From Marsupella aquatica (lineage: Eukaryota > Plantae > Marchantiophyta), in assembly GCA_973895155.1 (NCBI GenBank), contig OZ316897.1, positions 17,156,058 through 17,220,057 of the forward strand: DNA of 64,000 nt, read 5' to 3'. The notes under the pieces were generated by a model, which was not told the origin of the DNA, did no database searches, and saw only the letters and a program-made list of their open reading frames with translations. The position numbers and the translations under genes were made by a program. Positions 14,898 through 55,027 of this stretch are shown one piece after another (position 1 is the stretch's first letter; every line of letters starts with the position of its first letter).

Positions 14898-16090
14898 TCT
14901 AACGGTCAGATTTAAATCCAGTGAGATCTAACGGTCAGGAAATTAATTTAATACTAAATCTTTTGAGAATCTTCTCATTCACACACCGTACATTCGCCAC
15001 TTTGGCTCACACACAATACATTCGCCACTTTGGCGAAAGTGTAAAATCCTTAAAAAAATACGTGCTTTACGGTCCCTAGGGGGTGCAAGAGTAGATTCAA
15101 TAATTAGACCACAGTGCTGTAAAGTTTCGGTAGTTGGCGGACTACAGTGGATCGTCGCCATAGCTATTAGCTTCTCTCGATGTTTGCTCCCAGACATATT
15201 GCGCGAATCGAGGCAACAGTAGCATCCTAACTGACCGATCCAGTCCAGCCACCAGCCCACACAAGCCGTTCCAACGAGGACAGGCCAGCGGCCCATTCAG
15301 TGTGATTCAGGCACCAGCAGCCGGGCCACCATCGCTGATCGGTCGCTCGCCTGCCTCCCTGGAGTCCCTGCCCCCCTTGCTGCCTGCCCCCCTTGCTGCC
15401 TGCGTGCGTAACTCCCGGGGTCAAAGCGCATTACCGATAGTACTATTAGTGCAGTACTGTAATCAATAGCTGCTGCTGCTGTGCTACTGCTGCTGATGAG
15501 CTGATGAGCTCAATCACAGTCATCAGATTCTCTCAAGTCCTCAAGAGTCCAAAGCCCCGGAAGTGTGTGGGATTATATTAATTAATCTCGGATAACAGTA
15601 CGATGAGCTCATGAATCTGTCATGAATCGGAGCTGGAATTCTGTAGTGCTTTGCATTTCAGAGTTTGCCTCGACTCTACTAGTGCAATCATTAGCCAGAC
15701 TGACGACGAATGCAGCAGCAGTTTAGATTGGTGGATCGATCATCGACTTCCAGAATGTTGGAGCAGCAGATCAGGGCGAATTCGGAAGTTCATTGAGGCA
15801 TTGGGCAAACTTGCTCAATCTGGCGTGGAAGATGATGCTGATGACGAGGAGCCGGAGGTCGTCGAGGGGATGCTGCTGCTCATCACAACAGTATCGGAGT
15901 TTCGATCGAGCAAAGGAATGACGGAGGGCGTGAGGAGGCGGTCGAGTGCAGATTGCTGTTGGGCTGGTGTCATGCAGTGGGAGCGTCGAGCTGGAGCTGG
16001 CGGCATGCTGAAGGAGTCGAGAGGGGGCGGCGGCGGGTGTGAGAGCTCCTCCAAAGTCGTGGGACGGGGTTGTGAAGAGATTGCGAGAGA

Positions 16091-19000
16091 ATGAGAGTCC
16101 AGCTGCCGTGGGATGCGAGAAGGAGGTTGGATTGGAGGCTGTGGATTGTGTGGGTTGTGGTAGTAGTTGTCTTGGCATTGTGTAGTAGCAGTAGTACCAG
16201 GGTGGCTGATGGCCAGCAGCTGTCTGAGGATGCGCAAGCTCTTCTGGAGTTCAAGCAGGCTCTCCAGAACGCGACGGCGCTGGAAGGAAGCTGGAGCAAT
16301 GCAACGACAGAAGCTGCAAATCAAACGATTGCTCCGTGTGGATGGATTGGTGTCATGTGCTCAATCGATTCTCCTTCGGGTGCTGTCACAGCACTGGCTC
16401 TGTCCGGGATGAGTCTACGTGGGGTCATCTCTCCTGCTCTGGGAAGATTGAGCCATCTGCAATCACTAGACTTGAGTAGCAACAACTTCAGTGGCGTGAT
16501 TCCTCCAGAAATTGGCAACTTGAGTGCCCTCCAGGTCTTACAGCTGAGCAGCAACCAATTGACGGAACAGGTTCCTCTTTCGATCAGCTCGTTGATACAA
16601 CTACAGGTGCTCGATGTGAGCGGGAATTTTCTCAATGGGAGCTTACCTCCAGAGCTGGCGAATTGCACGAGCTTGCAATATCTGCTTACGCATGACAACT
16701 CTTTCACGGGCCTCATTCCTTCGGACTACGGCAGGCTATCCAACCTCTTGTCTTTTCGGAGCGGAGGGAATCAGCACTCTGGCTCGCTACCGGGATCGCT
16801 GGGGAACTGCACGAACCTCACCGTGCTCGGAGTTGCTTACAATCAACTATCTGGGAAGCTGCCCCTTCAACTTGGTAAGCTTCTCAAGCTCCGTTCTCTC
16901 AACCTCGTGGGCTCGCTCATGTCTGGCTCGATCCCTCCTGAGTACGGTAACATGACCTCCCTCGTGACGATGGCATTGTACAGCTCCTACATTTCTGGAC
17001 CCATACCGCTCGAGCTTGGCAAGCTCCAGAACTTGCAATCTCTCTGGCTCTACCTCAACAATCTGACTGGCACAATTCCCCGCGAAATAGGCAATTGTTC
17101 CTCTCTTCAGAGCCTCGACTTGTCCTACAATCAGCTCACAGGTGGCATTCCTGTGGAGCTGGGACAGCTCCAGAAGCTCACGGTGATCAATTTGTTTGTG
17201 AACAATTTGAATGGCACGATTCCGCCGGAGTTGGGCAACGCGGCAAGCATCACTACGCTGGAGCTCTATGAGAATCGGCTGGAAGGCTCCATTCCTTCTG
17301 AGCTTGGGAAATTGACATACTTGGCCGTGTTGGCAGCTTGGCAAAACCGGCTTTCTGGAGTTGTCCCTGCTACCCTGGGCAAGTGCACGCACCTCAACAT
17401 CCTGGACTTGTCCTTGAATGATCTCTCGGGTTCCATACCGGGGGAGATTTTCGCATCGGGTAGTTTGCAGCGTCTCTTTTTGTTCTCCAATTCTTTGTCA
17501 GGAACCATCCCGCCGGAAATCGAAATGTCAATCAACCTCACAAGGGTGCGTCTCGGATCCAACATGCTGAATGGCAGCATTCCACCAGAGCTAGCGACGC
17601 TGGAGTACCTCACGTACTTGGATCTTGAATCCAACAGTCTCACGGGCAATCTCCCAATGGACTTCGTTCAAAGCAAATCTCTTCAAGCCCTCCTCCTCGC
17701 TAACAACACGCTCTCAGGCGAGGTGCCCGGCGAGCTCGGAAACGTGACGTCGCTCATTCAGATGGACCTTTCGCTCAACTGGTTCACGGGCTCCATTCCT
17801 TCAGAAATTGGCAATTTAGCGAGGCTCATTACTTTGAATTTGAGCAATAACTTCTTCACAGGGGGCATCCCTCCCGAGTTGGGCAACTGCCAGGCCTTGA
17901 CCGAACTCGATTTGGGTGGCAATCTAATGAGTGGCCACATCCCGCCCGAGGTTGGGAAGCTGATCAGCTTGGAGATCAGTCTCAATCTCAGCTGGAACAA
18001 TTTTTCAGGCATGCTTCCCTCCACCTTGGGAAGTCTGACCAAGCTGTCGAAGTTGGACCTGTCGCACAATTCGTTGAATGGAGGCATCTCTCAGCTTAAC
18101 AACTTGGTGAGCCTCACATTTGTAAATATCTCCGATAACATGTTCACAGGCCCTTTGCCTGACATTTTTTTCCGCCCAATGATGACCTTGTCGTACTTCG
18201 GAAATCCGGGTCTGTGCATTGAAGACGTGGGCGGCGTCTGCCAAAACTCCCCTTCCTCAGCGTCTGATGGCAAACATTCCAGCCATCTCAGCTCAGCTCA
18301 AAAGGCTGCCATCTGGACTGCGTTGGTCATTATATTCATTTCGGTAGCTTTGATTATGATCTTCGGAATAATGTGTTTTGTGAAGCGGTACGACAAATCT
18401 TTCCAGCGCTACGTGGATCCGGCGACATCATCTCAGTGGACCCTCATTCCCTTCCAGAAGTTGGAGCTCTCAATTGAGGATGTTCTCTACTGTCTCCAGG
18501 AGATCAATGTCATTGGGCGGGGGGGATCTGGAACGGTGTACAGAGCCTCGCTGCCGGGAGGGCAAGTGATTGCCGTGAAGAAGCTATGGATGCCGGGCAA
18601 GGGAGAGATGTCTCACGATGCATTTAGCGCTGAAGTCGAGACTCTTGGCAAAATTCGGCACGGGAACATTCTTCGTCTCCTAGGGAGCCTTTGCAATAGT
18701 AATACCAATCTTCTTCTCTACACCTTCATGCCGAATGGTAGTCTCGGAGAGTTGCTGCACGCAGACGACACAGCCTTTCTCGATTGGGCCACTCGCTACA
18801 AGCTTGCCGTCGGAGCTGCCCACGGCCTGGCGTATTTACACCATGACTGTGTTCCACAAATTTTGCACCGTGACGTCAAGTCGAACAACATACTTGTCGA
18901 TTCCCGCTTTGAAGGTAACTACTCGGTAACAGGACAACGTCACGGTTATCCGTCAGTCAAGGTCACCTGAATTTTGCACCGTGTTGTTTATCTATGCATG

Positions 19001-20173
19001 ACCTCAATTCTACCTAAACATAGCATCCAGGAGCATGGTATGTTAACATACTTTCGATTCTCGCTTTGCAGCTCATGTAGCAGATTTTGGGCTTGCGAAG
19101 CTCATCTACGCTGCGGAAGATCACGCCTCGATGTCACGCATTGTCGGCTCATACGGATACATCGCTCCAGGTAAACGTTTTTCTCCGTCAACCCCGAGTG
19201 TACCTCAGCTTAAGATCTTGCTGGTGGGCTGGCATCCTCATCTCTTAATAGTTCCCATGCCAGCCTTCGTGAGAGGCGGTATCAATGATATCGCTTTGGG
19301 TGGAGATTTTGCTTCCTCTTTCAAGGCAGCTAACGATATGTAGGCATGTGTATGTCCATTCTTACTCACGTTTCCACGGCTTGATGATATTCCTGGCCGG
19401 CTCAGGGTCGGTAGGATTCGAACGAACTGCGTTACCGTAGCTACTGTGGCGCAAGTAGAGTGTCTGTCTTGCTCTGTAGTGTCGAGTCCAGAGTCCGGGA
19501 TGACAACCCTTGAAATTGAAGGTTGCGCTTGCGGATGAGAACTATCTGTATGCATCGTCTGTTGATGGGGTTTAAATGGGATGAGTGTCCTGTGGATGAT
19601 TGACCAAGATCATAACACAACTTGGTGTCCATCGTTGATTCCCATGGGAGACAGACAAGTTTTGCAGAAGTCAGTGAACCTGTTTTAACGAGCCAGGGCA
19701 TTGGATGTGCAGAGTACGCCTATACCATGAAAGTCACAGAGAAGAGCGATGTTTACAGTTTCGGAGTGGTGTTACTGGAGATTGTGACTGGCAGAAAACC
19801 GGTGGACCCGAGCTTCGCCGAAGCTGTAGACCTTGTTGGTTGGGTACATCACCAAGTAAGGGCAGGTATTGGAGATCGTACCATCCTTGATCCTCGGCTG
19901 AATGGTTTAACGGAAGCGCACTTACGTCAGGTGGAGGAGGTGCTGGGTATTGCGCTACTCTGTGTGACTTCTAGCCCCAATGAAAGACCCACCATGAGAG
20001 AGGTGGTAGCCATGCTTCTGGAAGTCCACGAGGAAACGTCGTTGAATTGGACGAAGAACGGTCCGTCATCAACTACATCATGCTCAAAACAGCCTATTCT
20101 TCCCAAATCCCCAGATTCCGATGACTCCACGTGGTCAAAGCCGCACTGCATGAGTGATGTTCCGTTGAGCTAG
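16091..20173 (+). CDS. LRR receptor-like Ser/Thr kinase, subfamily XI, RGI/RGFR-like; exons 16091-18914, 19072-19170, 19713-20173 (1127 aa)
   Basis: Signal peptide, LRRNT cap (PCGWIGVMC), more than 20 plant LRRs, a TM helix ([26 protein letters not shown]) and juxtamembrane WTLIPFQKL. Kinase motifs [30 protein letters not shown] and SDVYSFG join in frame across two GT-AG introns (3384 nt total). Confidence 0.96.
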
Positions 20174-26129: not shown

Positions 26130-28368
26130 CTCATTTGTTCCACGCACAACGGCCCATCGTGGTGGAAACTGCTTGGGTCAATTGGTCGTGGTGTTTTGGT
26201 CTAAAGAAGCTTGGCAAACCATGGTAGCGAAGGGCTGCCAGCCAGTCCCTAAGGCAGATTCTATGATCATTTCCCTCGGCGTACGTTACACGTACACCTT
26301 TGCCAATTACCCTAATGTATTGTCACGGCCAACATGGAGCTCATGAATGTGTGATAATGACCAATGGGAAAAATAGGACTCGATCAATTGGGTTACTGAT
26401 CTGACTTCGTCCAGACTTCGTGCATAGCACGGGAAGTCATGGAGTAGTCGATATTGTTGAAGAGCCTCAGACGCAATCAAAGCAAGACAATGTCAGGAGC
26501 GTAAACCTGGAGTATATTCCGAGCTTCGGAGATGAGACACAACACCACAATTGCTGACTGTATAGACAATTACATACTGTAGCTTTTTTTTCAAGTTAGC
26601 TCTTAGTCTTTTGGAGATCATGGTTTCGGGATCATTTGGTGAGGAGTACTCAATTAGGCGGCGTATCTCGATCCGGTTGATCCGGCCGTTTGAAATGTTC
26701 GTCAATAGAAGACAGTCTGTTGAAGATAAGTCTTTAGACTGCGCGACTCCATCAGCACCACGCCAAAGCTTATAATACTCCCAATTCTGTCCATTCTTTT
26801 CGGATTGAGTGAAATATGCTCCAGCTTTTCTGACGGCAGTTCTTTTTTCTCCGATTGACGCACTCACTGGAAAAACCTGTCAAGGCTGCAAAAAGGACAT
26901 GCATCAGACAGCATATTAAACAGCACCAGGAGACAAAGCCAAATGGTGAGGAGACAACCTCTAGGACCCACAAAAAGGATTCACGGTTCGATGATATTTG
27001 GTCTAAAGTGAGGGAAACACTGCAGTTTTATACATTAAGACATGACATTCTTCTGCATTCTCGTGAATTACTAAAATGTTCTTTCATGTAGGAAGTATAG
27101 AGATTTCCCTTTTGCAAATGTACACCAGAAAACTGGCTTTTGATGTAGCAGATTCAATTAGCCTCTGATTCTGGCACCCAGGCTGGCACATCATCAAAAT
27201 GGGGGTGATTTTTGCATTTCAGCTAACTTCCCTTTTATGTTGCTTTTACAGTAACCTCTGCTGTTGTACATACCTCGTACCTGTACATACCTCGTACTGT
27301 ACCTCCACCTGTGAAATAAAAAAACCTCTCCTTCACTTAACCTAGCCTCTTATCTCCTTCTCCTTTCATTTTTGTGAGCCCAGTATCTTTTTAATTAGTT
27401 TTGTTGGACCATTGCACCTGTGCGGTCCTTGACGTTTCTTCGCTGGTGGTACCCTCTGTTGACCCATATTCTTTCTGGGTCTGGGTCTGATTTTCTTCGG
27501 TTCATTTCTCAGTCCAAAAGAGGTCTGTCATTATAACAACTTCTTGAGAAAAGAGGTTGTAGAACACTTTATAATGCCTCCTCTTAGAGTTACTGAACTT
27601 CCACAACAAATGACTTGTGCTTACTTGAAATGTCCTTTTGACTTGTTTAGACATGAAATGCCTATCGCCTTCAGTCCTGCTTGAAAGTCCTTGTAACGAT
27701 TCAACTCAAATCCAAGTTCAAATTATTCTGACTTTGACCTAGGTCATCTGTAATACAACTGATTCACATAGTCCATCATTACGCTTCTTTGAACCAGAGT
27801 TTGGTTTGATTCTTTTTGGATTCATGTAAAGAGCACTAGCCCATATCTGTTCATTGCACGATTGTCATTGTGGCCATCTTGTCATTGCAGCCATGGATAT
27901 TGGTGTAAGTTGCATCAATGCAGTTGATGTGACCATTGTGTCGTTGTACTAGTCAAGGTTGTGGCCAAGTTGTGGTTGAAACCATTGGTGTTTTTGTGGT
28001 CATGTTATTGGGTGTGCAAGTGTACTGTGCATTAAATAGTCAAAGAAGAAAAGTCAAACATCTCAATGACTATATTTTATTGTGTGTCATGCAGTCATGG
28101 GCCCATTACAATTACCCCTAAGTCCAATAAGGCACCTTAAGAAAGGTGATCATGAGTGGTTGTTGAAATCACCACCATGAATTCTCGGTCAACCTGATTA
28201 CAATGCTATGTGTAGCATTGTCAACAGGGTCACGGGCTTAAAATTATGGTCTCGCCCCAGGTCCCAACCAATTTGGCTCTCCTCCAAAAATAAAGGACAG
28301 TACTGTAAGCTGACGGTTTGAGTATCATCAATGACAACTACCCAAAAGCATATGTGAAGGGAAAATAT

Positions 28369-28660
28369 ATTCACAACGAGAGGCAAGATCGAGGCACATT
28401 AATGCCTCGATCGTACTAATCAGGGCAGCAAGGGGCTGTGGGGCAGCTTAGAGGATTTTTGGGCAGGTTTGGGTGACACGTCGCCTGCCCGAAACTTTCC
28501 CGACGCAGGACTGGCCTTAAGGAAACCAGGGACACCTTCACTGCAAATAGCCCTGTCCCTTCCTTTGTTCCCGTCGACCCTCGCCCGTCGCATGGCGCCC
28601 TCCGACCCTCGCCCGTCGCCCATCGCGGCATCCCGTCAGTTGCCCATCCCGTCACTGTAT
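28369..28660 (+). repeat. Left terminal inverted repeat of the MULE
   Basis: ATTCACAACGAGAGGCAAGATCGAGGCAC...GTCACTGTAT is the reverse complement of 37617-37908. Confidence 0.97.
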
Positions 28661-28982
28661 TACGCTGTTGCCTGTCACCGTATTGTAACGACTCCAAAAA
28701 TGTACGCTTGTCTGTTTAGTGAAATTGCCTCCCTCCCCCAAAGGGTATCTACTACACACGAAGTTTGGTTTCGGGCCGTCTCATTTGCTTTCACGGACTT
28801 TGTTAGTGTTCACACAGGGGTCGAAGATCGACGATTGTTTGCAGGTCAGTTTTTGGTGTGCACAATGTGACAAGATTTTAGTTCAAAAATGCTAGTAGGA
28901 CCGACGTCGGTGGAGTGGCCAGGGTGAAGGTTCAATCTCAGGCAAGTTTTTTCACTTATATCAGTTTACTTGTGGGTCAGGA

Positions 28983-29891
28983 ATGGCCTCCTTGAGCGAT
29001 GTGCATCGTGCTGCAATCGAGAACGATACCCGAATTGTGGGTCCAATGCATGCTCGAATCCTGAATTTTGTAGCGAGAAATCCTTTCCCAAGGAAATTCA
29101 CGTATCGTGGGTGCATTGAAAGGACGAGATTGGGATTGTGTAAGGTTTCGATTGAAGGGCCGAATCACAAGCGCTGTCTCCACGACTCCTTTGAGAATGG
29201 TAACTACTCTGACATGTTTCGGTTTGAAGTCATTTTGTTAGATGACAGTTTACAGACTACCTATGGGCAACCTGCACTAGTCGCTGCAATTTGGGATGCA
29301 GCGACTACGCTGCTGCACATATCTGCAAGTGCATTGGCCGCTATGGACGAACATGATCAATTTTAGCTTGTGCACAACGCTACAAAGGATCTACCTCTCT
29401 GCAATGTCACATTTAGGGTGCAACGGGGGGCAATTCACCTCCAAGAGTTGGACATCATTTCCGACAGCAGCATATTGCAGTTGAGTCGTACTTGGCAGCC
29501 TTCGCTCACGCCAAGGCGAGGTGTCCACGGGAGCCCTTCTGCAAGGGTGCCTACTCTCGTTTCAGTCCCACTTGTTGTGAATACCACTCCACGAAGGATG
29601 GCTGTGAAATCAGTACCTATCACTCCGCCGTCGTCGCTTCTTGTTCATACCACTCCATCAAGGATGGCTACGAAATCAGTACCTATCACTTCGTCATTGT
29701 CAAGTTCCAAGCGCTCATCGCAATACAATGCAAGCACGTCAACAGCATTCACTTCCGAAGCAGTTAGTGCTGTAGAAGATGATTCTGGAAGTTCAAATTT
29801 AGAAGACAGCGGCATTGTGTCTGTTGTAAAGAGGCTAGCAAATGCCTTCAGTGCATCTCTAGACATGTACTCTTCTCGACACAGCGCATAA
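28983..29891 (+). pseudogene. Transposon accessory ORF A: RPA70 C-terminal (DBD-C)-like OB fold with zinc ribbon plus Ser/Thr/Pro-rich tail, interrupted by one in-frame TAG (29364-29366)
   Basis: ORFs 28983-29366 and 29370-29891 share a frame. FTYRGC-x8-CKVSI-x7-CLH...MFRFEVILLD...AAIWDAATTLLHISASAL resembles by eye the RPA1 DBD-C pattern (WYxAC..CxKKV..RCxxC..YRY.LxxxxxD..T.FDxxAxxxxGxSAxEL). Confidence 0.6.
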
Positions 29892-30222
29892 TAGTTCATT
29901 CATGGACATTTCTAGGGACATGGCAATTTTGTGTTGTCTTCTATCTTAGCTTACACATTTTTCCCACAATGTAAGCAAGGCCGTTGTTCATGCGAGCAGA
30001 TGATATCGAGATAACTTTTGGTTTCATTGTCTCCGTGTCCACAATGAATATTGTCATTTCTGTGTATTGTTTTTTTCCCGTGCTAGGTAGTTTCATTTAC
30101 AAATACATGTGTTGTCGTCTTTGGTTGAGAATGAGGATATTGGTATCTTTTACTACACTGACAGATGTCGGTTGACTTGCAGGAGGAAGTACTTTTTCCA
30201 TTAGCCATTTCCGTGAAATCAT

Positions 30223-32401
30223 ATGGCTAGAACAAAAAAGCAGGTACTAACCCAAATTAGGGTAATGCCCTCGCTTATTTGCATTATGCTATGTTTTTTA
30301 TACGTTGTCTCCCTCTTTTACAGTAGTGACTGTAGTATTGGTCGACCTTTGTCATGTGGTGTCGTGTGCTGCAGCTTCAAGTCTCTCGACCAAGACTTTT
30401 AAAGGGGTACAACACTGCTGTGCAACCGCATAGTGATGATAGTGGAGGGGAGCCCAAAACGCTTTTGAGTGGCCGTATATTGCGCCAAAAGAAACCGGGA
30501 CTCTCGCTAAAGGAGCCCGAAACCGAAACAGAGTCAGATGAATACGACAAGGCGCCAAGACAACGATCAGGGCAGCTGCAGGTCACTTCATCGCCTGTGA
30601 GGTCCCCTGTGAGGTCCGCGACTACTTTTGGCAAACCGAGGCGGGTTACTCGACACACAATGTCAAAAGATGCTCATCATCAGAAACGTTTGAATTCAAA
30701 CCACGAAACTGCGCAGAGTAAGAAGGTGGTGAGGGACAAGTATGCAAACAAGTCAAGTGTCGTAGATGTAATTACTTCTGCAAGTGAGGGTTCTGAAGAC
30801 CTTAGTTCTGCTACTGATCAATCAGAAGAAGGGTTTGACACCGATTCTCAAGACGGTGTACCCAAAAAACAAACAACCTTCAAGTTCGACGCACAGAAGG
30901 TGAATCCCGAACACACACTCGACATTGCGCATTTTTGTTTTCAACTGTTAAGTACAAATTATGTGTTACGCACTTCATGATTTTTTGACACTTCTAACTC
31001 ATTGCAGGCACAAAGGAACAAGTCAAAGCATGGCACTGCAACAGAGGGAGACCATTACACATTGTATGCCAATGCAGTGGTTTGCAAGGTTCCACCTTGC
31101 AAAAACCGAGTCTTCAAAACTGAGAGAACTTTTGGTAACCATGTCTTCAAAAAGCATGGTCTTATATCCACTGGCACGTCTGTATCCCTGTATGCCCTGG
31201 ATAGCGATGATGAGCAGAGACGGCACCTGTATAATGCACGGAGGAGGAAGCAGCCAGGTGCAATTGTCTGCACCTCTTATTATGATGCTAGAGGTTCAAT
31301 GCGAGCTCGATGGAGGCAAGCCAAGTACAGAATGAGGTAAATTCTTGCACATAGGTGATACAAATACGCGCATTAATGATTCATTATGTTTGTGTATTCA
31401 TATGCCAACGTGTGGCTCATGCAGGGCAAATATATTCAAAAGGTGGGTGACAAAATTTGAAGACAATCGATTCTCACATCCCCGCCCAATTGTGGGAGAA
31501 GAAGCCCTGTTGATTATTGTACTGAAATATGTGATGCCCAGTCTTGGGTATCATCCATGGAACAGCCTATTGAAGACCACAGAGTTCAACAAAGTGGTAG
31601 ATCTCATTTCTCTCTGCCCGACTACTGCTTCTGTTGGTACGTGGACTGACACATTGTCCAAGGAAGTAGAAGCCGACTGTCATTCACATTTGAGTGTGAA
31701 TGACCTCCAGGCAATGAAATCGGCCACTGCTGTGCTTGGCACAATCTTCAAAAGTGCAGTCAGTCCGAGTGATAGTGAACAGCTTAGGCATGCATTGCTA
31801 GCCCATAGACAAAATATTTGTGAAGAAGCAATTGCATGGCTTCAAACGAAAAAACACGCCATTCTCTGGGAGAACAACCACGGATGGAGCACATACGAGA
31901 AGAAGGCAGAGGAGGAGTACCAGGCTTGGAAGGTTAAAGCCAAACCAAACAGTTGTGCGACTACTCTACCTAATCTTGTGCAGGCATATAAGGCATTCAG
32001 CGGTTGCAGTGACGCAGAGGCCAAACGACAGGTGAAAAGATCATCATTTGTTCTAGGGTTCTACATTTGTGTTCTTGGCTTTGTCACTTTCTAGTGCTAA
32101 ACTGAATTGCATCTCATTCCAGGCCGCAACAGATAGTGTTTGGATTGACACTTCAGATGATGGTGCACCGCCCAAGGAGAGGAGAGCAAAACCAGTGGCA
32201 AGGAAAAGGAAATTCACTCCAGTCACCAAACTCGTGTCCAGGAAGAAAAAATTGGAACAACATGAACCGACTAATGGCACACCCACCAGTCGCGGGCCTT
32301 TATCGCTTACAGGTGATTTCAACCTTCAACTCGGACTTGCTGGTGGTCCAAACGGGGATCGACCGGGAAAGAAACAAGTCCCCTCTATAGCTAATGTATG
32401 A
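30223..32401 (+). CDS. Transposon accessory gene B (~586 aa): MARTKKQ N-terminus, disordered basic/acidic region, C2H2 zinc finger, helical domain, NLS-rich tail; exons 30223-30243, 30375-30899, 31008-31336, 31425-32031, 32123-32401
   Basis: Four GT-AG introns (donors CAG|GTACTA, AAG|GTGAAT, GAG|GTAAAT, CAG|GTGAAA; acceptors TGCAG or TCCAG) link the ORF-track fragments in one continuous frame. Zinc finger CKVPPCKNRVFKTERTFGNHVFKKH; basic clusters ARKRK and RKKK. The first microexon and the 3' end are the least certain parts. Confidence 0.7.
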
Positions 32402-33570
32402 GTCTTTTGGGAGGAGTTTACAGGACATCAATCGATGACTAGATAGGTATATTGCCAACCAGCCAACAATCTTGGAAAAAAATATGGATGACCTTGGCAA
32501 ACGGATAGCATCAGTTGCTGATCGGATCAATCGTCTTTGAGTGTCATCGGATCAATCTTTGGAGAATTTAAATGTTACGACTCATGTGTGCAGTCTAGGA
32601 GTGACTTATGTAAGTGGTGTGACATTGTATCACGTCCAAAATGGAAATCCAGTGTATTGAGTGCAAGAATGGAATATGTTCACCACTGTTGACTATGGAA
32701 TACATAAAGCCTAATTTTTCTCAATCGTCCGTGTTATTGTCCATGTTATGAATTCGAGTGCCGCGCAGTGCACTTTAGTTTCAGGTTGATGCTCATGTTT
32801 TCACTCTAAAATCAATGCATGCGAAATGCACACTGTTACTCAATGTAGGGATGGTAATTGCGCAGTATTGAATGTTGTGTACTACAAGAATGCAATCTGA
32901 GATGACATTCCGGATGGTTTGCTCACAAACAACAATACATGAGTGTTTTCTCCAATCTCTGCATGGTCGATCATTTTGTCAAAGTTGCGACATCCAACAC
33001 GGTGCAAAATTTTGCATTACATTCTCGTGCTTGAATTAAGCACGGTCTCCAGGAAGTCACTTGTAAACTCTGACATGTTTTATTGACAAACTCTAATCTG
33101 CTATACACACAACATTAGCGTCATGTAATGAAGTGGGGGCCGCACTACTGTCCCAAGTTGCCCCAACTGAGAAAGCATGTAGTAAGTCAGAGAAGCTGGG
33201 CGACATAGCCCATGTTTGACTAGATCCTATGTGAATGTTCCCAATCACTTGCGATTGGGATGGAGTTAAAGCTTCACTCAAAATTGCCGATTGTGAACAT
33301 CCTTCCTTTACAGCCTGTAGCGGATATGGTGGAGAAGCACGAGTCTTCCTCGGCCGAGTTGCTTTACTTGACTTCACATTAGCGTTGGAGGTAGCAACGT
33401 CCTTTGACAACGCTTTATCGGCTTTCTTTGATCTCGTCATCTTTTTAGCCGGTGCTTCACACCCTGCATCCGACATGATGCCATTCTCAACAATGAACAA
33501 GCGAATTTTCTACAAAAGAAGGGGAATATGGTCATAAATTTTGTGGCATACAAGGCGATGTAAATGGATT

Positions 33571-36500
33571 TCAATGTGTAGTGAACGCATCCCCTAAAGT
33601 CTTACCTTTTGTGAAAGCGTCCGTTGTTACTGCATTTAGCAAGTCTTGCAGTGCGTCGACTGCCATCTTGTCAAATTTTCCTTGAAATGAAAGTGATGTC
33701 TCCTTCTTCTTAATGTGTAATTTCTCTGGGGCACTCGTCATGAACATTAAGCTCTTGGCTTTGTCACTCTCGTCCTTCCCTTTCCTCTTTCGTCTGCCCT
33801 TGTAGAGTTTGTCTACCCATCCTCGTTTGGCCACTGTTGTGATGTTCGACTCTTCATTTGGAACCATAGTCTCCAACCTTGTCGAATCATGACATTCTAG
33901 TTCTAGCCTAGTCACGTTCTGTTGAGCCTCCCTGGTTTGCAGCGATTCACACCACGCCTTCAATTCCTTTAGAGCTTGTACTGCTAGAGATGGTATGTAG
34001 GAAACGGTGTCATAAGCCTTTTTTAGAATGGATTGGAACTCATCCAATGGAGGGGACATAAGAACCGCGTCAGGTTGGGCTGGTTCATCATCCCAGAACT
34101 CCTCATCATCATAGTGCAGAGTAACATCCGCAACTTCGGTCATGAATTCCAGTTCCCCGTTTTGGACCTTCAAGTGCACATCAAGCCCTCCGCAGAAGGT
34201 GCCCATCTTGGAACCAAGTTGTGTAAGGAGATCCAGGTCTGTTATTGTTTTCGTCATCAGCAGGACCTTGATCTACAAAACAAGGTTGACAATGGTTAGC
34301 CAGGGTGTCTCCGTAAAGTAAAGCACCATTTCCCTGAAGATAATTAGGCATGAATTGAAGCTTAGTTGATCATACCTGATGCTTGCAAGCATTTCCTTTG
34401 ATTGAATACCCGCAAGTGCAAGAGCAGGCATCATTATTCCAATGAGTAACAAGGTGCTCCTTCACGGAGGTATATTTCTCTGACATGCTTCTCACTGAGG
34501 CACACTTAGTTGACCCGCATTCAATGAGTGTGACGAAATGATCGGGGATTAGTTTGGCTCGATTCATGCATTTGTGGATGTGTTGTTCCACTGTACGATT
34601 CCTTAGCCTGCCTTGGAACTTATTAGCATACATGCACCAATAATGATTCTCAATGAGTTCGAGCCTCTCAATTAGCCATGGAATTGATCTGCCACTGACA
34701 CTACTCTTGTCTGCCTTCAATTCTACCTTGAGGGTGTGGTGCCACCGTTCAATTCCGCCATTTGTGTTCTGATTTGCATGCCTGTATAACCTTAAGTTTA
34801 CAGCCCAACGTGTGATTTTTCCGTGCCATTCTCTTTTGTAGTAGGCTACAAAAGCTGGTTGCGTTTCCTTCCATCTCTCAATGAATGCTTCAGACTCTGC
34901 TCCTACATCTGCATCAAACCAAGCCACATGAGTAATTTAAATTTGTTGATGAGAACAATGTAAGCACAACAGACTTAGGCATATGGTTTTACGAGCTAAC
35001 CAGATCCATCAGAGTACATTAACGCCCCAAGGTCTGCGTTAATCTGTGCTTTTGCAAACGGGCAAAACACCTTCCAGATAATGTTTTTGTCCAAGCCCTC
35101 CTGACGTGCCAGCTACAAAATGTGATCGGCACACCTGGGAAGACATTGCTGTGAAATGCAACACTGACATGTGAGGGAGAGAAGCACAATTAACACTGTT
35201 CATTGTCAGGTCTTATTCGTTCCTATGGGGCCTTGGCTCGCATAAGTAAGTAGCCAGCAAGGTTGGCTACCTTGACCAATAAAATAAAACTTGGACATGG
35301 CTTACGCATTATAAGTTGTAGCATGAATTCATGAGTAAACGATGATGGCATTTGCCCCGGGCATTGCTTGCATTTACCTGATTGCAATTTGCTCTTCATC
35401 TGCAACATCGATAATCCAACAATTTGGCTTCCATGGGCCAAGTTGTCCCATTTCCTTTCTCTTATTGTCTGCCGCCTCTTTCAGTGCTAATAAAACATTT
35501 GTGACTTGCACCGCTTTATACCTTTGAAGGACAGCGAAAGCGACAGGGATGGCATTCTGAAATTTGTCAAATACGACAACAGTGTAGAATGGAAACTGCG
35601 CACAAAGAATAATTACACGACATCAGGATTGTCGTGTGCATTGCAATGACAAATTAAGTGAGGGCAAGTAAAGGTATATTACAACTTTCAATCCATACAT
35701 ACCCCGCAGTGGTTTGTGCCGAATGTGGCATCGAACCCCAGTGCACTGTCATGTCCTAGCACTGCCAGTTTCTTCTTTTGCCAATCAGTCGACCAGGCTA
35801 AGATGAATGGCTGGTCCTGAGCTTTTAATTGCGGTTGGTAAAGGAGGACATCAGACTCATTTTGAGTGACCCAGTTTTGAACGCCAGCTGCATCATCAGT
35901 AGTGTAAAATGGTTGTCTCCAATGCTCTCTTACTGTCCAAACGTCTTTCGGTGTTAGCTGCATGTCCCTACTAAACATTACATGAGCATCCTCATCTGGG
36001 TGTTCTTTTCGCCATTTCAAAGCTACCTCGTCGAAGTGGGCCCTGATTATAGCCTTCGTTGACATGCCAGCTCTCAAATAGCGTTCTAATTTAGCCCTGA
36101 GTTTCAACAAAATACGTGGAGCTATGTGACAATTGGATGCATATGCAGATGTGTCCTGTAAGCCATGGCATATTTGCCCTTGTTTGTCGTGATGTTCCCT
36201 ATGTAACCAACGTACGAGGACCACATCCTTACGCTGTACAAAGTGAGTTGCAGTAAAGCTGCACCTGCAGCCTCGCCTGATTGAGTGGCCTGATAGCATT
36301 ACATATGGATGGTTAGCAATCATTGTGTCAGTTGAGATTCGGTCCTATCAAAGTTGCCAGGCATATCAGTTTTAGAACATAATGAGTACTGTTCAGTCAG
36401 ACCGCACACTTATATGGAATATGGCAAAGACATTGCCTGCCACGGGGCCTGCCACAACACACGCTTTCAATAGGTTATTGCAAAGACACTAATGTTTGAT

Positions 36501-37328
36501 ACTTTGATTCAAGTCGTGCTCCTCCCTGCAAAGGCCAATGTCAGAAATGAACAGATCGTTCGTTTGCATGGGAATAGTGTTTATACCTATAATGGTTTTC
36601 TTCTTCAGGTACACGCCTCCTTCTTTTGACGACAACTTTTGTGGAACCTTGTTGCCCATCACATTCTTCCATTGGCGCTTGTCTTCAGGGCCAAAGCAGC
36701 AGTTATACCAAATGACCGTTTTCTCAAGCGGCCCGGATCCATTAATCTTATGCTCCGCAGATCTTCTAATGGAGAATTGAGTGTGAAAGTTTTCCCTCAT
36801 GTTTTCTCCCCAGATGAAATCATTCAAGCAATGTTTAGGAATCCAAGCATAGTCGGCCCTAGTCCCAAACCATTGTAATACGCTTGCATCAAATTCGCCA
36901 GGGGGAGGGTCACATTTAAATTTGTCATGATAGCATTTCTTAAGGTCGGGTGTTGGGCGATTAGGAGGATTCCATGAGTCTTTGAAGACATCATCATGCT
37001 TGCCATCGTCCTGCTTCGCATTGTCATGCTTGCCGTCATCGTGCTTTGCATCACTGTGCTTCACATCGACATCATCCTGGTCGACATCCTCTTCCACTTG
37101 CATTGCACGGAAATTACCCTGTAAGCTACCCGACCCATCAATAAGCCCGTTGTTATTCACTACCTGTGAATCCTCAATGCTGCACTCGCGGTCTTTGAAA
37201 CACCCCACTGATCCAATTTTAAACGCCTGCATCCTGTCTTGCAAAAGTCCAATGGAGTTCGGACTTGATAATGTGAATACTCCACTCTGGAATGCAGCGA
37301 ACTTTGACCTCAAAGAGTTTAAATCCAT
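33571..37328 (-). CDS. MULE (MuDR-like) DDE transposase with SWIM zinc finger; exons 37328-36587, 36289-35703, 35595-35378, 35148-35001, 34908-34376, 34272-33571 (possible extra 3' exon 33500-33093); one apparent 1-nt frameshift at ~35086
   Basis: N-terminal zinc-finger-like RGCRCSF...HREHHDKQGQICHG; catalytic D in LGFDATFGTN; FPFYTVVVFD...IPVAFA; second D in WIIDVADEE; CSWH (CxxH); E in NTNGGIERWH; SWIM CSCTCGYSIKGNACKH. Exon phases balance only if one A is restored in the run at 35084-35088 (about 976 aa). Confidence 0.92.
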
Positions 37329-37616
37329 TCATGCATGTCGTTGAGGCCCAACCTCGTAATGGGATTTGGACAATGCTGTAAGCACACTTCCTGAATTGTC
37401 CCTGCAATCCATTGCCAAAATTGTCGTGCACCGCAAAACATTGCCAATGCAACTGACAGGAACTCAACAAGAGCCATTCTTTCCATGGATTGTCCATTGC
37501 GCCTTTGCCACCAAATTTTGAAAGCGTAAAATTTTGAAAGCGTAGTTACGAATTCAAAAATGGTTCTCGACTCAGTTCAGAACGCCTGTAGAGTACACGG
37601 CACATTCTTACTCGGG

Positions 37617-37908
37617 ATACAATGACGGGATGGGCAACTGACGGGAGGCCGCGACGGGCGACGGGTGAGGGTCGGCGGGCGCCATGCGATGGGCGAGGGT
37701 CGACGGGAACAAAGGAAGGGACAGGGCTGTTTGCGGTGAAGGTGTCCCTGGTTTCCTTAAGGCCAGTCCTGCGTCGGGAAAGTTTCGGGCAGGCGACGTG
37801 TCACCCAAACCTGCCCAAAAATCCTCTAAGCTGCCCCACAGCCCCTTGCTGCCCTGATTAGTACGATCGAGGCATTAATGTGCCTCGATCTTGCCTCTCG
37901 TTGTGAAT
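37617..37908 (-). repeat. Right terminal inverted repeat of the MULE
   Basis: Reverse complement of 28369-28660, followed immediately by the TSD GAAAATAT. Confidence 0.97.
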
Positions 37909-39282
37909 GAAAATATCGTATAAGAACTCTCACCAACCCATCTATCAGTTGTGAGCAGTACAGATTCATCACTTCTCCCACTATCCTAGAAAGTCGAAAA
38001 ATAGAGTAGCATTCATCATTGCTCCCACTAAGCCAAAAATATTTTATTTCAGAAAAGCTGGAGAGCAGCACGTACAGGCTCAGTGGATTTGAGGAAAGGG
38101 TTACTTATTAGGGGTGTTGGTTGGCTTCTGATTTGAGGTGCACCTTAGGATGCATGGGTAGTTCAGGCATGCCAGTTCCGAGTCAGTAGGTGGACAGGTG
38201 CCTTTGTCACCTGGGAGTCACCGTCAGCAAATGATGGGCCTTAGCTTGAGATAGATCAATACACAAGTGATCTCAAAGAACTAGTTGGCACATTACAAAC
38301 AGGACTATAAGTTCTACCAATGGAAAAGGTTTCTTAGTAGCTGGACCCCAGACCTAAGTTAGGGCACTACAATGCTTAAATGTATATGTGAGGCAAAGTT
38401 GTTCAATATATATATATAATTTACTTGAATTGTGTGAAAGGGACTACAGATGTAATTCTGTGGGCGATGGTCTGGTTGCTTTCCACTCGTTTTCTCCTTG
38501 TTGGCCTTGTCCACTTGACTGAATGTGTTTGGTCTTTGTGTGACGTCTGGCCTTTGACCGTTTTTTGTGGTCTGGCCGTTTTACTCCCTGTCTTATTGGG
38601 TTTTACTTTCCATATAAGTAAAGTGCTCCATTCAAGACAACAACAACAAAATTCAAGGTAATGCAAATAAGTATTTTTGCCCTAAGTATATATGCCAGTA
38701 TATATGGATACATGAATATTGACCAATCAAATTTCCTTGATAAATTGAATGTGCACCTTTAGATCTGGCGAGTAGGTCCCTTGTCTAGGGAGGTATTTGG
38801 GGAGCAAAATTTCAGTTTTTTTTTTGTTATTACTGGAAACAAATGGTGGATAAAACTTTTGTGAAAATTAGCCAGCATTGAAGCGGGCGTCGAAGGAAAC
38901 GTCCATCTCAATCTGTTCCTAAAACTCGGTGAAAGAACAATTGAGATCCAAAACCTCGTGAACACGAGCAATGGATTACCCCAATAACAGTCCCATCACT
39001 GTCTCCCATTCTAGTTAGCAATCTACACTAGTTTGACAACTGTACATAATTATAAGCAAAAACTTAGGTGTTAAATTGGCATCGTTCGCCGTATTTGTAA
39101 CAGCTGCAAAGACGATGCTCGAATGCTCGAACGATGCTGTGAATTTGGATTATAGGAGTTTCCAACATCTTTCAGCACGGCTGTGCACTCAAGCTAGGTA
39201 ACAGGTATGTAGCACGACCTTACAGTGAAGCTCAAGCTTAAGCTAAAGCTCACGCTCAAGCAGCAAGCAAGCAAGCAATTGC

Positions 39283-41373: not shown

Positions 41374-41464
41374 ACCTGGATGGCCCTAGACTAGACTTAA
41401 AATGTGTTTATTTACTTCTACATCAAATTTGACAGACCAGGGGTCTAGTTGATAAAAGTTAGTT

Positions 41465-43248
41465 TAGGGGAATCTCAAGAGGGATATGCTTAATAGGCCC
41501 CCTCCTGGAGATACTTTGCTTAATCAACCCCTTGGAGACTTTTTTGCCCCAATGAGCCCCTCTTTATGATCCGTACCCTTTGTTCTTGTGTTCTTGTGTA
41601 AGTTCGTATAAAGTGATTTTTCAAAATAAAGACCAAACTAGGTGACAGTGCACTGTACCCGTTCAACCACAAACTATGCAGTGACTAGGAAAAAATCACA
41701 GTGACCGTGCAAAGATTGAACAACAACTATTACCATGCGCAAGAACTGAACTGCAAGCATTTGCACGTTCTCGCCGCTTCTATCGACATTAGGGTTATCT
41801 TATGCAAATACATTGACATGACTGCCTTCACTTAATTTGTAAATGGATTTCCACAATTTTTTTGATATCCTCCCATTCCGTCTTTTGGCCCATGCTCAAA
41901 CGGTAACTTACAACTCTACACAGCTTTTCACAAGGCGCACTGCACACTGACCTACCACCCCACCTACCACCATCAAGACCTAACACCTAAACCCTACAAC
42001 CCTACAACTGTAAATAGCTCCTTCATATGGAGAGTTTCCATAATTTAATTGGTAATGTCAGATCATGATTTAGTCATGGCTTATATGAATGCACTCAACA
42101 AGAACCATGGCTATAAACTAGTAAGACAATCAAATGAAAGGGAAACAACCCAAGGTTAAGTTACAATAACCAGATCTTACATTACAAAACCAGTCACTGA
42201 AATGTTAATGGGGGACTAGTATTTATTACTAGATGCAAATTGAATATAGGAAAAACCTTCAGTTTGGAGGTAGTCTCAAAAATTTGTGAGACCCTTAACA
42301 CCACATCATTCACATTCAAGTTGGTCGCCCACTAATTAAAATTGCAAACTGGAAGGATGTACATTGCAAGAAAATGACAAGTATTTCAGGGTTGGGGTTT
42401 GAGGGTTTTCTAATACCCAAACAGTGCTAGAAGACATTGTGGGCATTGTCTTTTCATCACACTTAGCATTTTTTCCAGCAAGAGTATATGGTGCTTGCCC
42501 CAGCCATTTAGGCGGAGGTAATCGGGGGGTAAATGGCCGACACGGATGCTTTTGGAAAACATTGTGGACATTGTCTTCCCACTACACTTAGCATTTTTCC
42601 AGCGAGAGTAAATGTTGCTCGCCCAAGTCATTCAGGCGGGAGTAAATGGCTGACACTGGTGGTTTTGGAAGACATTGTGGACATTGTCTTCTTACCACAC
42701 TTAGCATTTTTTCCAGGAAGAGACTATATGTTGCTCGCCCAAGCCATTCGGACAGGGGTAAATGGCCAACACTGGTGGCATGTCTCAATGGTGGCAGGTC
42801 CATGCGCCATGCACCTCGTGAAAAACTGCGTAAAGTTGTTAATGTTTGAGCGTGAACGAAAGACATAATGGAAGGATATAAAAAAAATGTGGAAATCCAT
42901 TTACAAAGTGAAGACATTCATGTCAATGTATTTGCATAGAGGCGGCGCAAACATGCAAACTCTTGCAGTTCAGTTCTTGTGCATGGTAAGAGTTGTTGTT
43001 TGATCTTTGCACAGTCACTACTATTTTTTCCCGGTCATTGCATAGTTTGTGGTTGAATGGGTACAGTGCAGTGTCACCCAGTTTGGTCTTTGTAAGGCTG
43101 AAAACTCACTTTATAAGAACTTACACAAGAACAAAGGGTACGGATCATAAAGAGGGGGCTGATTGGGGCCAAAAAGAATTCAGCGGGTTGATTAAGCAAA
43201 GTATCCTGGAGTATGCCTATTAAGTGTATCCCTTGGAATCTCGAAAAA
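41465..43248. mobile_element. Non-autonomous foldback / long-TIR element with ~480-bp diverged arms and internal ~120-bp tandem repeats
   Basis: ~41470-41960 is the reverse complement of ~42770-43245 (e.g. CTCTTTATGATCCGTACCCTTTGTTCTTGTG vs CACAAGAACAAAGGGTACGGATCATAAAGAG). Three copies of ACATTGTGG(G/A)CATTGTCTT...CACACTTAGCATTTTT lie at 42430-42780. No clear TSD. Confidence 0.8.
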
Positions 43249-43469
43249 CTGCATGATTGCAAATACCTCCAAGAATGTCAGCTATTGTAAGGCCCAGGAC
43301 GGTACAATAGAGGGAATCCGAAGGAACCAGAGCGAAAAAGAGATTGATCCTGAGATCCCCACTCTTTTCTCAACATCTGTGTTACATAAATTAATACCTT
43401 GAGTACCCTAAACTGCTTTCTACCAAACTTTGGGGATGCATACCTTCATATCTTCCACCAAAGAGCATA

Positions 43470-53117: not shown

Positions 53118-54359
53118 TCAGTACAATCTTAGCCGAGTAGAAATCTTCTGCCGACAGAGTGGGCAACTTTGTAAGCCCTTCGCACAATTGCGACAGGTCT
53201 GATGCCCACAATTGAAAGCCATATCTTTCCTCTCAGTCAGGCAGACAGGGCAAAGGTAATCATTGCCGGCATCTACACTCGCAGTAGCCTCTTGACTTGA
53301 TGGTGGGTTTTGAGGGGCCCTGCCTCCAATCCCATTCTTAGGGCCCCGCATAGCAATTTTTTCTAGAGGCGGATATTGGAAGCCTTGATTGCTTGCAACA
53401 CTACTGGACTGGGCATAGCTGGAATACATGTGACCTGGTTCACGGTGATCTACCTGCCATACTGCTGGAGGTGGACGAAGAACATTTGTGTTTGGCAATC
53501 GTCCAGTTCTTCGGCCTAATAGTTCGAGCTCGATGGTAGCTTTGTACTGTTGAGGAATTTCCATCAGCGCTGCAAGTGCAAACAGGGCTTCCCTCTTGCC
53601 GACATCCAGATTTTTGGCCATAATCTCTGTGAAGTTGACGAACTGGAAATTGTCAAACGACCTGAACGGAATGTTGTCGTCAAACTGTTGCATCGTTTCC
53701 CAAGGACCGTCCCCAACGCCAACCAATACGATCGAAAGTGGATACTCACTAGCTGCGACAATTGCATCGATGGTTGCTTTCTCCTGAAGACTTGTCACCT
53801 GCCCGTCTGCGACGATGACCAGCACATGATATTGCCCCCCGCTCTCTTCGGCGGTCTTCATTGCTGCCTCGATGATTGGAGCAAAAGAGGTAGGACCAGA
53901 AAGCTTCAAGTTAGGCACAATTTCCCGGTACCGAATTAGTGCGTCGTCAAATCCATTGCACGGGTGATGATCTTCATAGAAACTAAAGACGTTGTGGTCG
54001 TGCGTTGAAGCGTCTCCAAAGCCAAAGCACGGGATCAAATTGTCCTCATCGAAGGATGCAAGTGTTCTTCCGATGATCGAAATGGCTTGCTCGTACGGAT
54101 TCCGATACGCTCCAATATTGTGCAAACATTGATTATTGAACGAAAACTTGCCCGTCCACTCGTTGCTTTTCGTGAAATCGATGCCGACAATGAGGTTCGA
54201 CGACTCGAGACCAGCTTGTCTCAGCGCATTCGTAACCTGATCCAAGCTATGATAATCGTCCGCAATGTGCGAGAATTTCTTGGAGACTTTTCTAGGAAGG
54301 GGACGGGAGGAAGCCCTTGGAGGTGGTGCTCTTCTGGTGCTAGACTGGCTGCCGCCCAT
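53118..54359 (-). CDS. RGLG: RGLG-family E3 ubiquitin ligase (copine/vWA domain plus C-terminal RING), intronless, 413 aa
   Basis: Myristoylation-type start MGGSQS; GLESSNLIVGIDFTKSNEWTG, NPYEQAISIIG, GPTSFAP, YHVLVIVADGQV, GVGDGPW, FDNFQFV, ALMEIPQQYKA; C3HC4 RING CPVCL...CGHQTCRNC...CPLC. Single uninterrupted ORF. Confidence 0.95.
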   Translation of the reverse strand: MGGSQSSTRRAPPPRASSRPLPRKVSKKFSHIADDYHSLDQVTNALRQAGLESSNLIVGIDFTKSNEWTGKFSFNNQCLHNIGAYRNPYEQAISIIGRTLASFDEDNLIPCFGFGDASTHDHNVFSFYEDHHPCNGFDDALIRYREIVPNLKLSGPTSFAPIIEAAMKTAEESGGQYHVLVIVADGQVTSLQEKATIDAIVAASEYPLSIVLVGVGDGPWETMQQFDDNIPFRSFDNFQFVNFTEIMAKNLDVGKREALFALAALMEIPQQYKATIELELLGRRTGRLPNTNVLRPPPAVWQVDHREPGHMYSSYAQSSSVASNQGFQYPPLEKIAMRGPKNGIGGRAPQNPPSSQEATASVDAGNDYLCPVCLTERKDMAFNCGHQTCRNCAKGLQSCPLCRQKISTRLRLY

Positions 54360-55027
54360 AGCTACAAGCTCTTACAAATCCTCGACAATGACAAAAATAC
54401 CTCAAGGCTCGGAGAATTTTTCCTGTCGAATCAGGAAGGACACGTTTTTTAATCTCGGTGCGCTTAAAAGTCAGCAACAGTGACTTCCGACTTTTTCCGA
54501 GTCGCAAATGGGACCAGAGTCCTTCTCACGGCAAAGATATCTCTATCTTATAGCAATCAGCCGGACTATAGGTAGCTATCGATCCATGCCTCCACCGGCA
54601 ACCGCAGCCCCTCTGCTAGTAATATGAACGTGCAGCTCAAGCCAGTCAATTCAGGCTCCCCCTAAAGTTCACGCGTTCAACACGGATCACAGCAGCTCTA
54701 CCTCGTCGTCGTGATTTCGCTTTAGTCAGTTTTTGCGTCCAATTCGCTTATCTCGAAGTCCTTTAGAAATTCCAAAGATCTTGATGTTCAGGTTAAACAG
54801 TCAATGTTGGTTTGTAGTGTAACGCGCCAACGACAGCATGAGCCGCTTGTGCCTTTATCTTCCCCTGACGAAGCGACGTTCTTTGAATAACAAGCAACAG
54901 GGGTTACCGATAAACGAGGCTCGCAATCATCGAATGATGTCACTCTCCCGATCCTGGCACCTGGACTGCCCTTATATACACCTTCGTGGCTGTGTGGTCA
55001 AGTACAGATTTGCGTTAGACATGGGTT

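Follow-up and report, generated by a model that had tools for sequence, protein, structure and literature searches.

What do two further genes do inside a Mutator-like element (MULE), and do they serve the element itself or were they picked up from its host? This question is raised by a 64,000-nucleotide stretch of the liverwort Marsupella aquatica (contig OZ316897.1, positions 17,156,058 to 17,220,057 of assembly GCA_973895155.1; hereafter the window), in which a 9,540-bp MULE occupies positions 28369–37908 and carries, besides a spliced transposase gene, the two genes A and B. Our preferred reading is that of a broken MULE copy, in which gene A encodes a predicted single-stranded DNA (ssDNA)-binding domain of the RPA70 type that likely helps the element itself to transpose, while gene B encodes a likely DNA-binding regulator. 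For this reading as a whole, we see about even chances. The strongest result concerns gene A: an RPA70C-like gene that is old and diverse is carried by a cut-and-paste element.

Results

A defective copy of a multi-copy MULE family

The element ends proposed in an earlier note on this DNA were confirmed by alignment and by comparison of the flanks. The two terminal inverted repeats (TIRs) of 292 nucleotides each differ at eight positions (97% identity), all of them past position 173, whereas nucleotides 1–173 are identical. An exact 8-bp target-site duplication (TSD), GAAAATAT, stands at both flanks, and a match of this kind is expected by chance at about 3e-5 for a fixed end. Long TIRs are a criterion for MULEs, and the TSD length lies within the described range of 8–11 bp (PMC6446971). 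Copies were sought in four sequencing runs from two studies with two organism labels, which contain 58–92% of the element's words, and the run with the highest share may be that of the sequenced sample itself; a further run, X5, with the same label as X3, has almost none of them. Four contigs of run X3 diverge from the window exactly at 28368 into unlike flanks, so the same element end is present at other sites. The interior of the element holds seven stop-free frames of at least 170 amino acids, while 189 of 200 shuffles had none and no shuffle had more than two. The element is a real MULE and belongs to a multi-copy family. The window copy is defective in two of its three genes, with an in-frame stop in A and a frameshift in the transposase, and gene B is open.

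Gene A encodes a predicted OB fold of the RPA70 DBD-C type

On its own, the sequence of A was uninformative, with no Pfam match at E≤1, nothing below E 0.37 in a PDB sequence search and no useful match in the ESM Atlas; metagenome and viral scans returned no relatives, and a viral structure library gave no match at E≤0.001. A family was recovered with the first 176 residues, carrying an X at the stop, against 1.84 billion representatives at E≤1e-3. Here, 69 clusters matched, 50 of them with at least 190 amino acids and the largest with 383, at a median pairwise identity of 28%. The full CCCH set of likely zinc ligands (Table 1) is present in 45 of 53 rows, and aromatic and basic columns are also conserved. 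Among 30 clusters looked up, eight are from Calypogeia fissa, one is from Riccia sorocarpa and 21 are without organism name; ten C. fissa proteins (these eight and two further members) are spread over nine contigs. The family is dispersed like a mobile gene, and its named members are all liverwort (Calypogeia, Riccia).

A model built from a 56-row alignment reached a predicted local distance difference test (pLDDT) score of 93.7; a single-sequence fold with a pLDDT of 45 was not used. The top Foldseek match of the model was human RPA70C (E 7e-5, template modelling (TM) score 0.55). In a VIA search, U. maydis RPA70 DBD-C and Teb1 OB-C scored Z 12.8 (root-mean-square deviation 2.9–3.5 over 134–138 residues) and human RPA70C 12.7, while generic OB folds stayed at Z ≤7.9. 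The family profile also matches yeast Rfa1 DBD-C (E 8.6e-4), and among 56 members six touch the Pfam entry CDC24_OB3 and four Rep_fac-A_C. The OB-like character seen in A by the earlier note could hence be assigned more precisely, as the model predicts one zinc-ribbon OB fold of the RPA70 DBD-C type with a helical insert. Likeness to RPA70 DBD-C and Teb1 OB-C resides in this zinc-ribbon OB-C fold (Z 12.6–12.8), whereas A shares only 12–15% identity, uses CCCH ligands, has no other OB domains and places its helix after a long linker. In RPA70, the zinc ligands of DBD-C are of the C4 type and the terminal helix follows directly after the domain.

In 39 of the 48 family members that are full-length, the terminal amphipathic helix outscores the linker before it; a homodimer prediction for a full-length relative, made without an alignment, scored 0.00 and gave no verdict. 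In the window copy, this helix is nearly identical, letter for letter, to that of the closest relative, and the part behind the stop can be aligned through to it, so that the TAG represents recent damage to a gene that was formerly complete. The stop had gone unmentioned in the earlier note, whose description of two genes reading inward from the left TIR is otherwise correct, both lying on the plus strand. A quick tree of 61 rows left 23 of 58 inner branches open and was not used for claims on origin.

Within the linker of A, we also observed a 66-bp tandem duplication (29571–29701), and divergent copies are 30 bases shorter there, in frame.

Gene A is kept next to gene B and is under selection

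Records less than 90% alike accounted for 176 of 319, 107 of 250, 355 of 769 and 347 of 787 in the four runs and covered all three genes. Among the divergent contigs, X3 record 16 connects the region inside the left TIR with the start of A, and X3 record 18 (14% substitutions) and X4 record 24 run from the end of A through exons 1–2 of B. In both X3 and X4, the match of one more distant contig to B was patchy and confined to exon 4 and the stretch across to the beginning of exon 5.

The codon test covered 40 of 2,378 differences; the tool had picked these for their support, they are not independent of one another, and letters were scored singly. Of these 40, 34 fall in modelled coding DNA. In A, 11 of 17 listed differences are synonymous vs. 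about 27% expected (p=0.001), with one giving a stop when scored alone. The transposase has 6 of 10 (p=0.03), and its uncertain last exon 1 of 3. Of the 12 indels listed (369 further exist), seven lie in introns or a TIR, four, which add up to six bases, in exon 2 of the transposase, one at the frameshift and none in exons of A or B. In three pieces of purely coding DNA from A and B exon 4, there are 10–13% substitutions and no gaps; eight pieces, either with a non-coding share of 18% or more and a length above 180 nucleotides or located outside exons, have 1.8–5.2 gaps per 100. Gene A is under selection among the copies and kept adjacent to B. The adjacency of A and B in divergent copies and the mostly synonymous differences in A make a recent Pack-MULE capture of A improbable.

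Gene B is a candidate regulator

The earlier reading of B as a frame-consistent gene of five exons, with a MARTK start and a C2H2 motif, holds: the frame is open across four GT-AG introns of 131, 108, 88 and 91 nucleotides. Behind the MARTKK start, which we take to match the first residues of histone H3, a low-complexity N-terminal third is followed by one C2H2 motif (amino acids 208–232; 31083–31157), a basic segment (amino acids 241–300, 25% K/R), an unmatched domain of about 195 amino acids and a basic tail. The four large exons, each scanned singly, had no Pfam match at E≤1, PDB sequence searches with exons 3 and 4 gave nothing below E 0.37, the ESM Atlas had no useful match for exon 4, and a viral scan with exon 3 revealed no relatives. 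A word-indexed search with exon 4, a weak search covering longer proteins only, yielded no relatives among 415 candidates. The blanks for B are weak because the same word-indexed tool, with transposase exon 5, missed the 41%-identical Riccia transposase; moreover, only 10 of the 69 relatives of A share at least three 5-mers with it. From its sequence features, B is likely DNA-binding and a candidate new transposon regulator.

The transposase gene

A spliced transposase of the DDE/SWIM kind, transcribed inward from the right TIR, had been described before, and our analysis agrees. Its exons, modelled like those of the other genes from splice signals, open frames and homology, are joined by GT-AG introns. 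A search with exon 2 gave one match among 447 candidates, Riccia R1sor_019175 (43% identity), which has the MULE domain PF10551 (E 3.6e-12), PF21056 and a weak SWIM match, and which aligns to five of the window exons in order at 34–43% identity. The window exons themselves did not match PF10551 in the Pfam scan, and SWIM was weak there (E 0.01); metagenome scans contained no relatives. A CxxH motif lies in exon 4, exon 5 ends with a SWIM finger, and the putative catalytic triad, which we assigned from the motifs of the family, would comprise D 35730–35732, D 35407–35409 and E 34748–34750. The frameshift in exon 4, which the earlier note likewise did not mention, is of one base, near 35085–35090: the Riccia protein tracks one window frame up to about 35088 and a different one beyond, and one X4 contig has an extra base at 35085, the site of the frameshift. 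The intact transposase frame that marks an autonomous copy is absent from the window copy.

Directly before the transposase ATG, an in-frame upstream ATG opens 27 codons closed by a TGA (37329–37412, minus strand), which could be either an upstream open reading frame (ORF) or a further nonsense lesion.

Table 1. Features of the Marsupella aquatica MULE (window positions)
Feature	Position	Strand	Details
Left TSD, 8 bp	28361..28368	.	identical to 37909-37916
Left TIR, 292 bp	28369..28660	+	includes 10-bp inverted repeat, TIR positions 19-44
Tandem array CCCGTCG in left TIR, 7-bp unit, ~8 copies	28570-28626		
Gene A, single exon, 302 codons, broken	28983..29891	+	TAG at codon 128 (29364-29366)
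Gene A, OB domain	codons 1-160		predicted RPA70 DBD-C-type OB fold; C44, C53, C65, H67 likely zinc ligands
Gene A, after OB domain	helix ~29823-29879		S/T/P-rich linker, then C-terminal amphipathic helix
Gene B, 5 exons, 586 amino acids, open	30223..32401	+	30223-30243, 30375-30899, 31008-31336, 31425-32031, 32123-32401
Possible last transposase exon, 138-amino-acid open frame, uncertain	33093..33509	-	no in-frame join at nearest splice sites
MULE transposase, 6 exons	33606..37328	-	37328-36587, 36289-35703, 35595-35378, 35148-35001, 34908-34376, 34272-33606
Right TIR, 292 bp	37617..37908	-	97% complementary to left TIR
Right TSD, 8 bp	37909..37916	.	

Derivatives and neighbouring features

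Contigs of X1, X3 and X4 join 28735 to 36527, skipping 7,791 bases, and those of X1 and X4 also skip 28428–28666. This junction likely belongs to an internally deleted, non-autonomous derivative without A, B and most of the transposase. At the other end, X3 record 21 and X4 record 28, contigs that carry the second organism label, begin 30 bases inside the right TIR and enter the flank with one difference (37879–38534), hinting at the same insertion being common to both labels, at one base below the bridging rule.

About 8 kb from the element, a leucine-rich repeat receptor-like kinase gene occupies 16076–20173 on the plus strand. A single open frame of 417 amino acids with a complete copine domain and a RING finger, presumably RGLG-like, lies at 53118–54371 on the minus strand. 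RGLG genes of flowering plants have many introns, and this apparently intronless gene may be a retrocopy. At 41419–43289 lies another inverted-repeat element, about 1.9 kb long, whose imperfect arms measure about 550 bp; no TSD was found within 8 bases of its aligned ends.

Discussion

How could such cargo serve a MULE? In our preferred reading, the transposase would bind the TIRs, excise the element and insert it with an 8-bp stagger, and A would coat the single-stranded DNA at insertion gaps or at the donor break after its resection. The conserved C-terminal helix of A, held on a flexible linker, could recruit the transposase, a repair factor of the host or a second A as its partner. By favouring sister-templated gap repair or the completion of insertion, A might then raise the copy number. 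Gene B could use its C2H2 finger and basic segment to bind element DNA, promoting expression or insertion, comparable to MURB in MuDR, where MURB is required for insertion, not for excision (PMC10401008). The window copy would require A and transposase supplied in trans.

A layout with three ORFs is already known in MULEs (VANDAL, Abermu); it is the cargo that appears to be new. Extra ORFs known from MULEs are mudrB, mutB, vanB/vanC, the plant mobile domain (PMD) and others (PMC6446971), and PMD, often antisense in the MULEs carrying it (table 1 of that source), had no match in the exons of A or B. With MuDR, the element shares long TIRs, a MULE transposase and a helper gene on the opposite strand (PMC10401008, PMC9168764), but it has two extra genes and an 8-bp TSD, and MURB has been described as characteristic of the MuDR subfamily. 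VANDAL elements (VANA, VANB, VANC) are likewise three-gene MULEs with accessory genes (PMC6446971), whereas the element described here has long, near-perfect TIRs and neither a DUF1985/DUF287 match nor interior tandem arrays. Barley Abermu is an 8.2-kb MULE that also has three ORFs, one of them opposite to the transposase (PMC9168764). Its ORF2 is, however, co-directional with the transposase, and the accessible part of that source mentions no OB fold, whereas here both extra genes face the transposase. In the open literature, with Repbase, subscription journals and supplements outside the scope, we found no MULE or other cut-and-paste element with RPA/OB cargo, nor this family.

Several points weigh against our reading. 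The identity of A to RPA70C is low (12–15%, at a TM score of about 0.55), and related OB-C domains (Teb1, POT1C, RMI1) also mediate protein contacts, so that the fold is not proof of ssDNA binding. The joint retention of A and B, which the earlier note proposed to test, is borne out by their adjacency in divergent contigs, but among those listed none links B with the transposase or covers the whole element. The differences scored for selection were a tool-chosen, non-independent sample, and for B they comprise two synonymous and two non-synonymous changes, which is uninformative. Distant relatives of A may ride other elements such as Helitrons. In Riccia, the A relative R1sor_014200 and the transposase R1sor_019175 are not neighbours, although each may be one of many copies. 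Moreover, many MULEs move with the transposase alone (PMC9168764), as does AtMu1 (10.64898/2026.08.24.746577).

With respect to origin, A could alternatively have started as the gene for ssDNA binding in a different class of element, most likely Helitrons, and have been acquired by this MULE family, leaving A and B as passengers or family-specific genes; we consider this unlikely. Helitrons of plants and animals are established carriers of RPA-like genes (PMC4683698, PMC6431247), and the plant Helitron RPA homologues (PHRPA, Mothra) resemble A as transposon-borne, fast-evolving, RPA-like genes for ssDNA binding (PMC4683698). They reside, however, in rolling-circle elements, and the Helitron RPA clade was found only in monocots and dicots; the proteins are longer (472 amino acids in rice) and have several binding sites (PMC4683698). 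A-family proteins, in contrast, have a single OB fold and at most 383 amino acids, and gene A combines one DBD-C-type domain and a helix within a TIR/DDE element. In addition, copies that are 11–14% diverged retain A within the element with an excess of synonymous differences. Far less probable is a Pack-MULE-type capture, in which A and B would be pieces of host genes drifting neutrally in an ordinary MULE. Capture of host DNA is frequent in MULEs (PMC6446971, PMC6431247) and A is broken in the window copy, but the transposase is broken as well, which makes the decay copy-wide. Furthermore, A is a complete family gene that has a start, zinc ligands and a terminal helix of its own and still aligns behind the stop; it is distant from host RPA70 and shows the synonymous excess, and an element of 9.5 kb with a full-length transposase gene is unlike a small, non-autonomous Pack-MULE. 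The earlier note's rejection of host fragments is supported for A, an old, selected gene beside B, whereas capture is less well excluded for B alone: its listed differences are evenly split, and the argument from its intact exons is weakened because the other two genes of the window copy are broken.

The same note had named an anti-silencing system as a candidate. In such a module, B, perhaps with A, would bind element DNA and remove or block methylation like VANC, and MARTKK could act as a decoy of the H3 tail. The C2H2 finger, the basic segment and the N-terminus that we presume to be H3-like would suit such a role, as would the orientation of B opposite to the transposase, as in mudrB. Both TIRs also contain a CpG-rich 7-bp array and keep an observed/expected CpG ratio of about 0.9, vs. 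0.6 in gene B, the transposase and the flanks. The Pfam scan of the B exons, however, gave no VANC domain match (DUF1985/DUF287). VANC acts on dense tandem arrays situated within introns and in upstream regions (PMC5735166), whereas the 2,974 nucleotides of interior non-coding DNA hold no motif array, the top 8-mer occurring five times, which was equalled in 4 of 100 shuffles. Demethylation of termini is also possible by transposases themselves (10.64898/2026.08.24.746577), and no H3-tail mimic in a plant transposon was found in the open literature. The proposal has no direct support, and we regard it as improbable.

An ssDNA-binding helper in a MULE touches on the open questions of how cut-and-paste MULEs gain copies and which role helper genes such as mudrB play. 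In this context, a helper with a recognisable ssDNA-binding fold would offer a biochemical handle on the repair step. If our reading is true, transposon-borne RPA-like proteins would extend from rolling-circle Helitrons to a DDE/TIR superfamily. Gene A also leads to a family without annotation that comprises at least 69 divergent clusters and whose members, where an organism is named, are all liverwort proteins.
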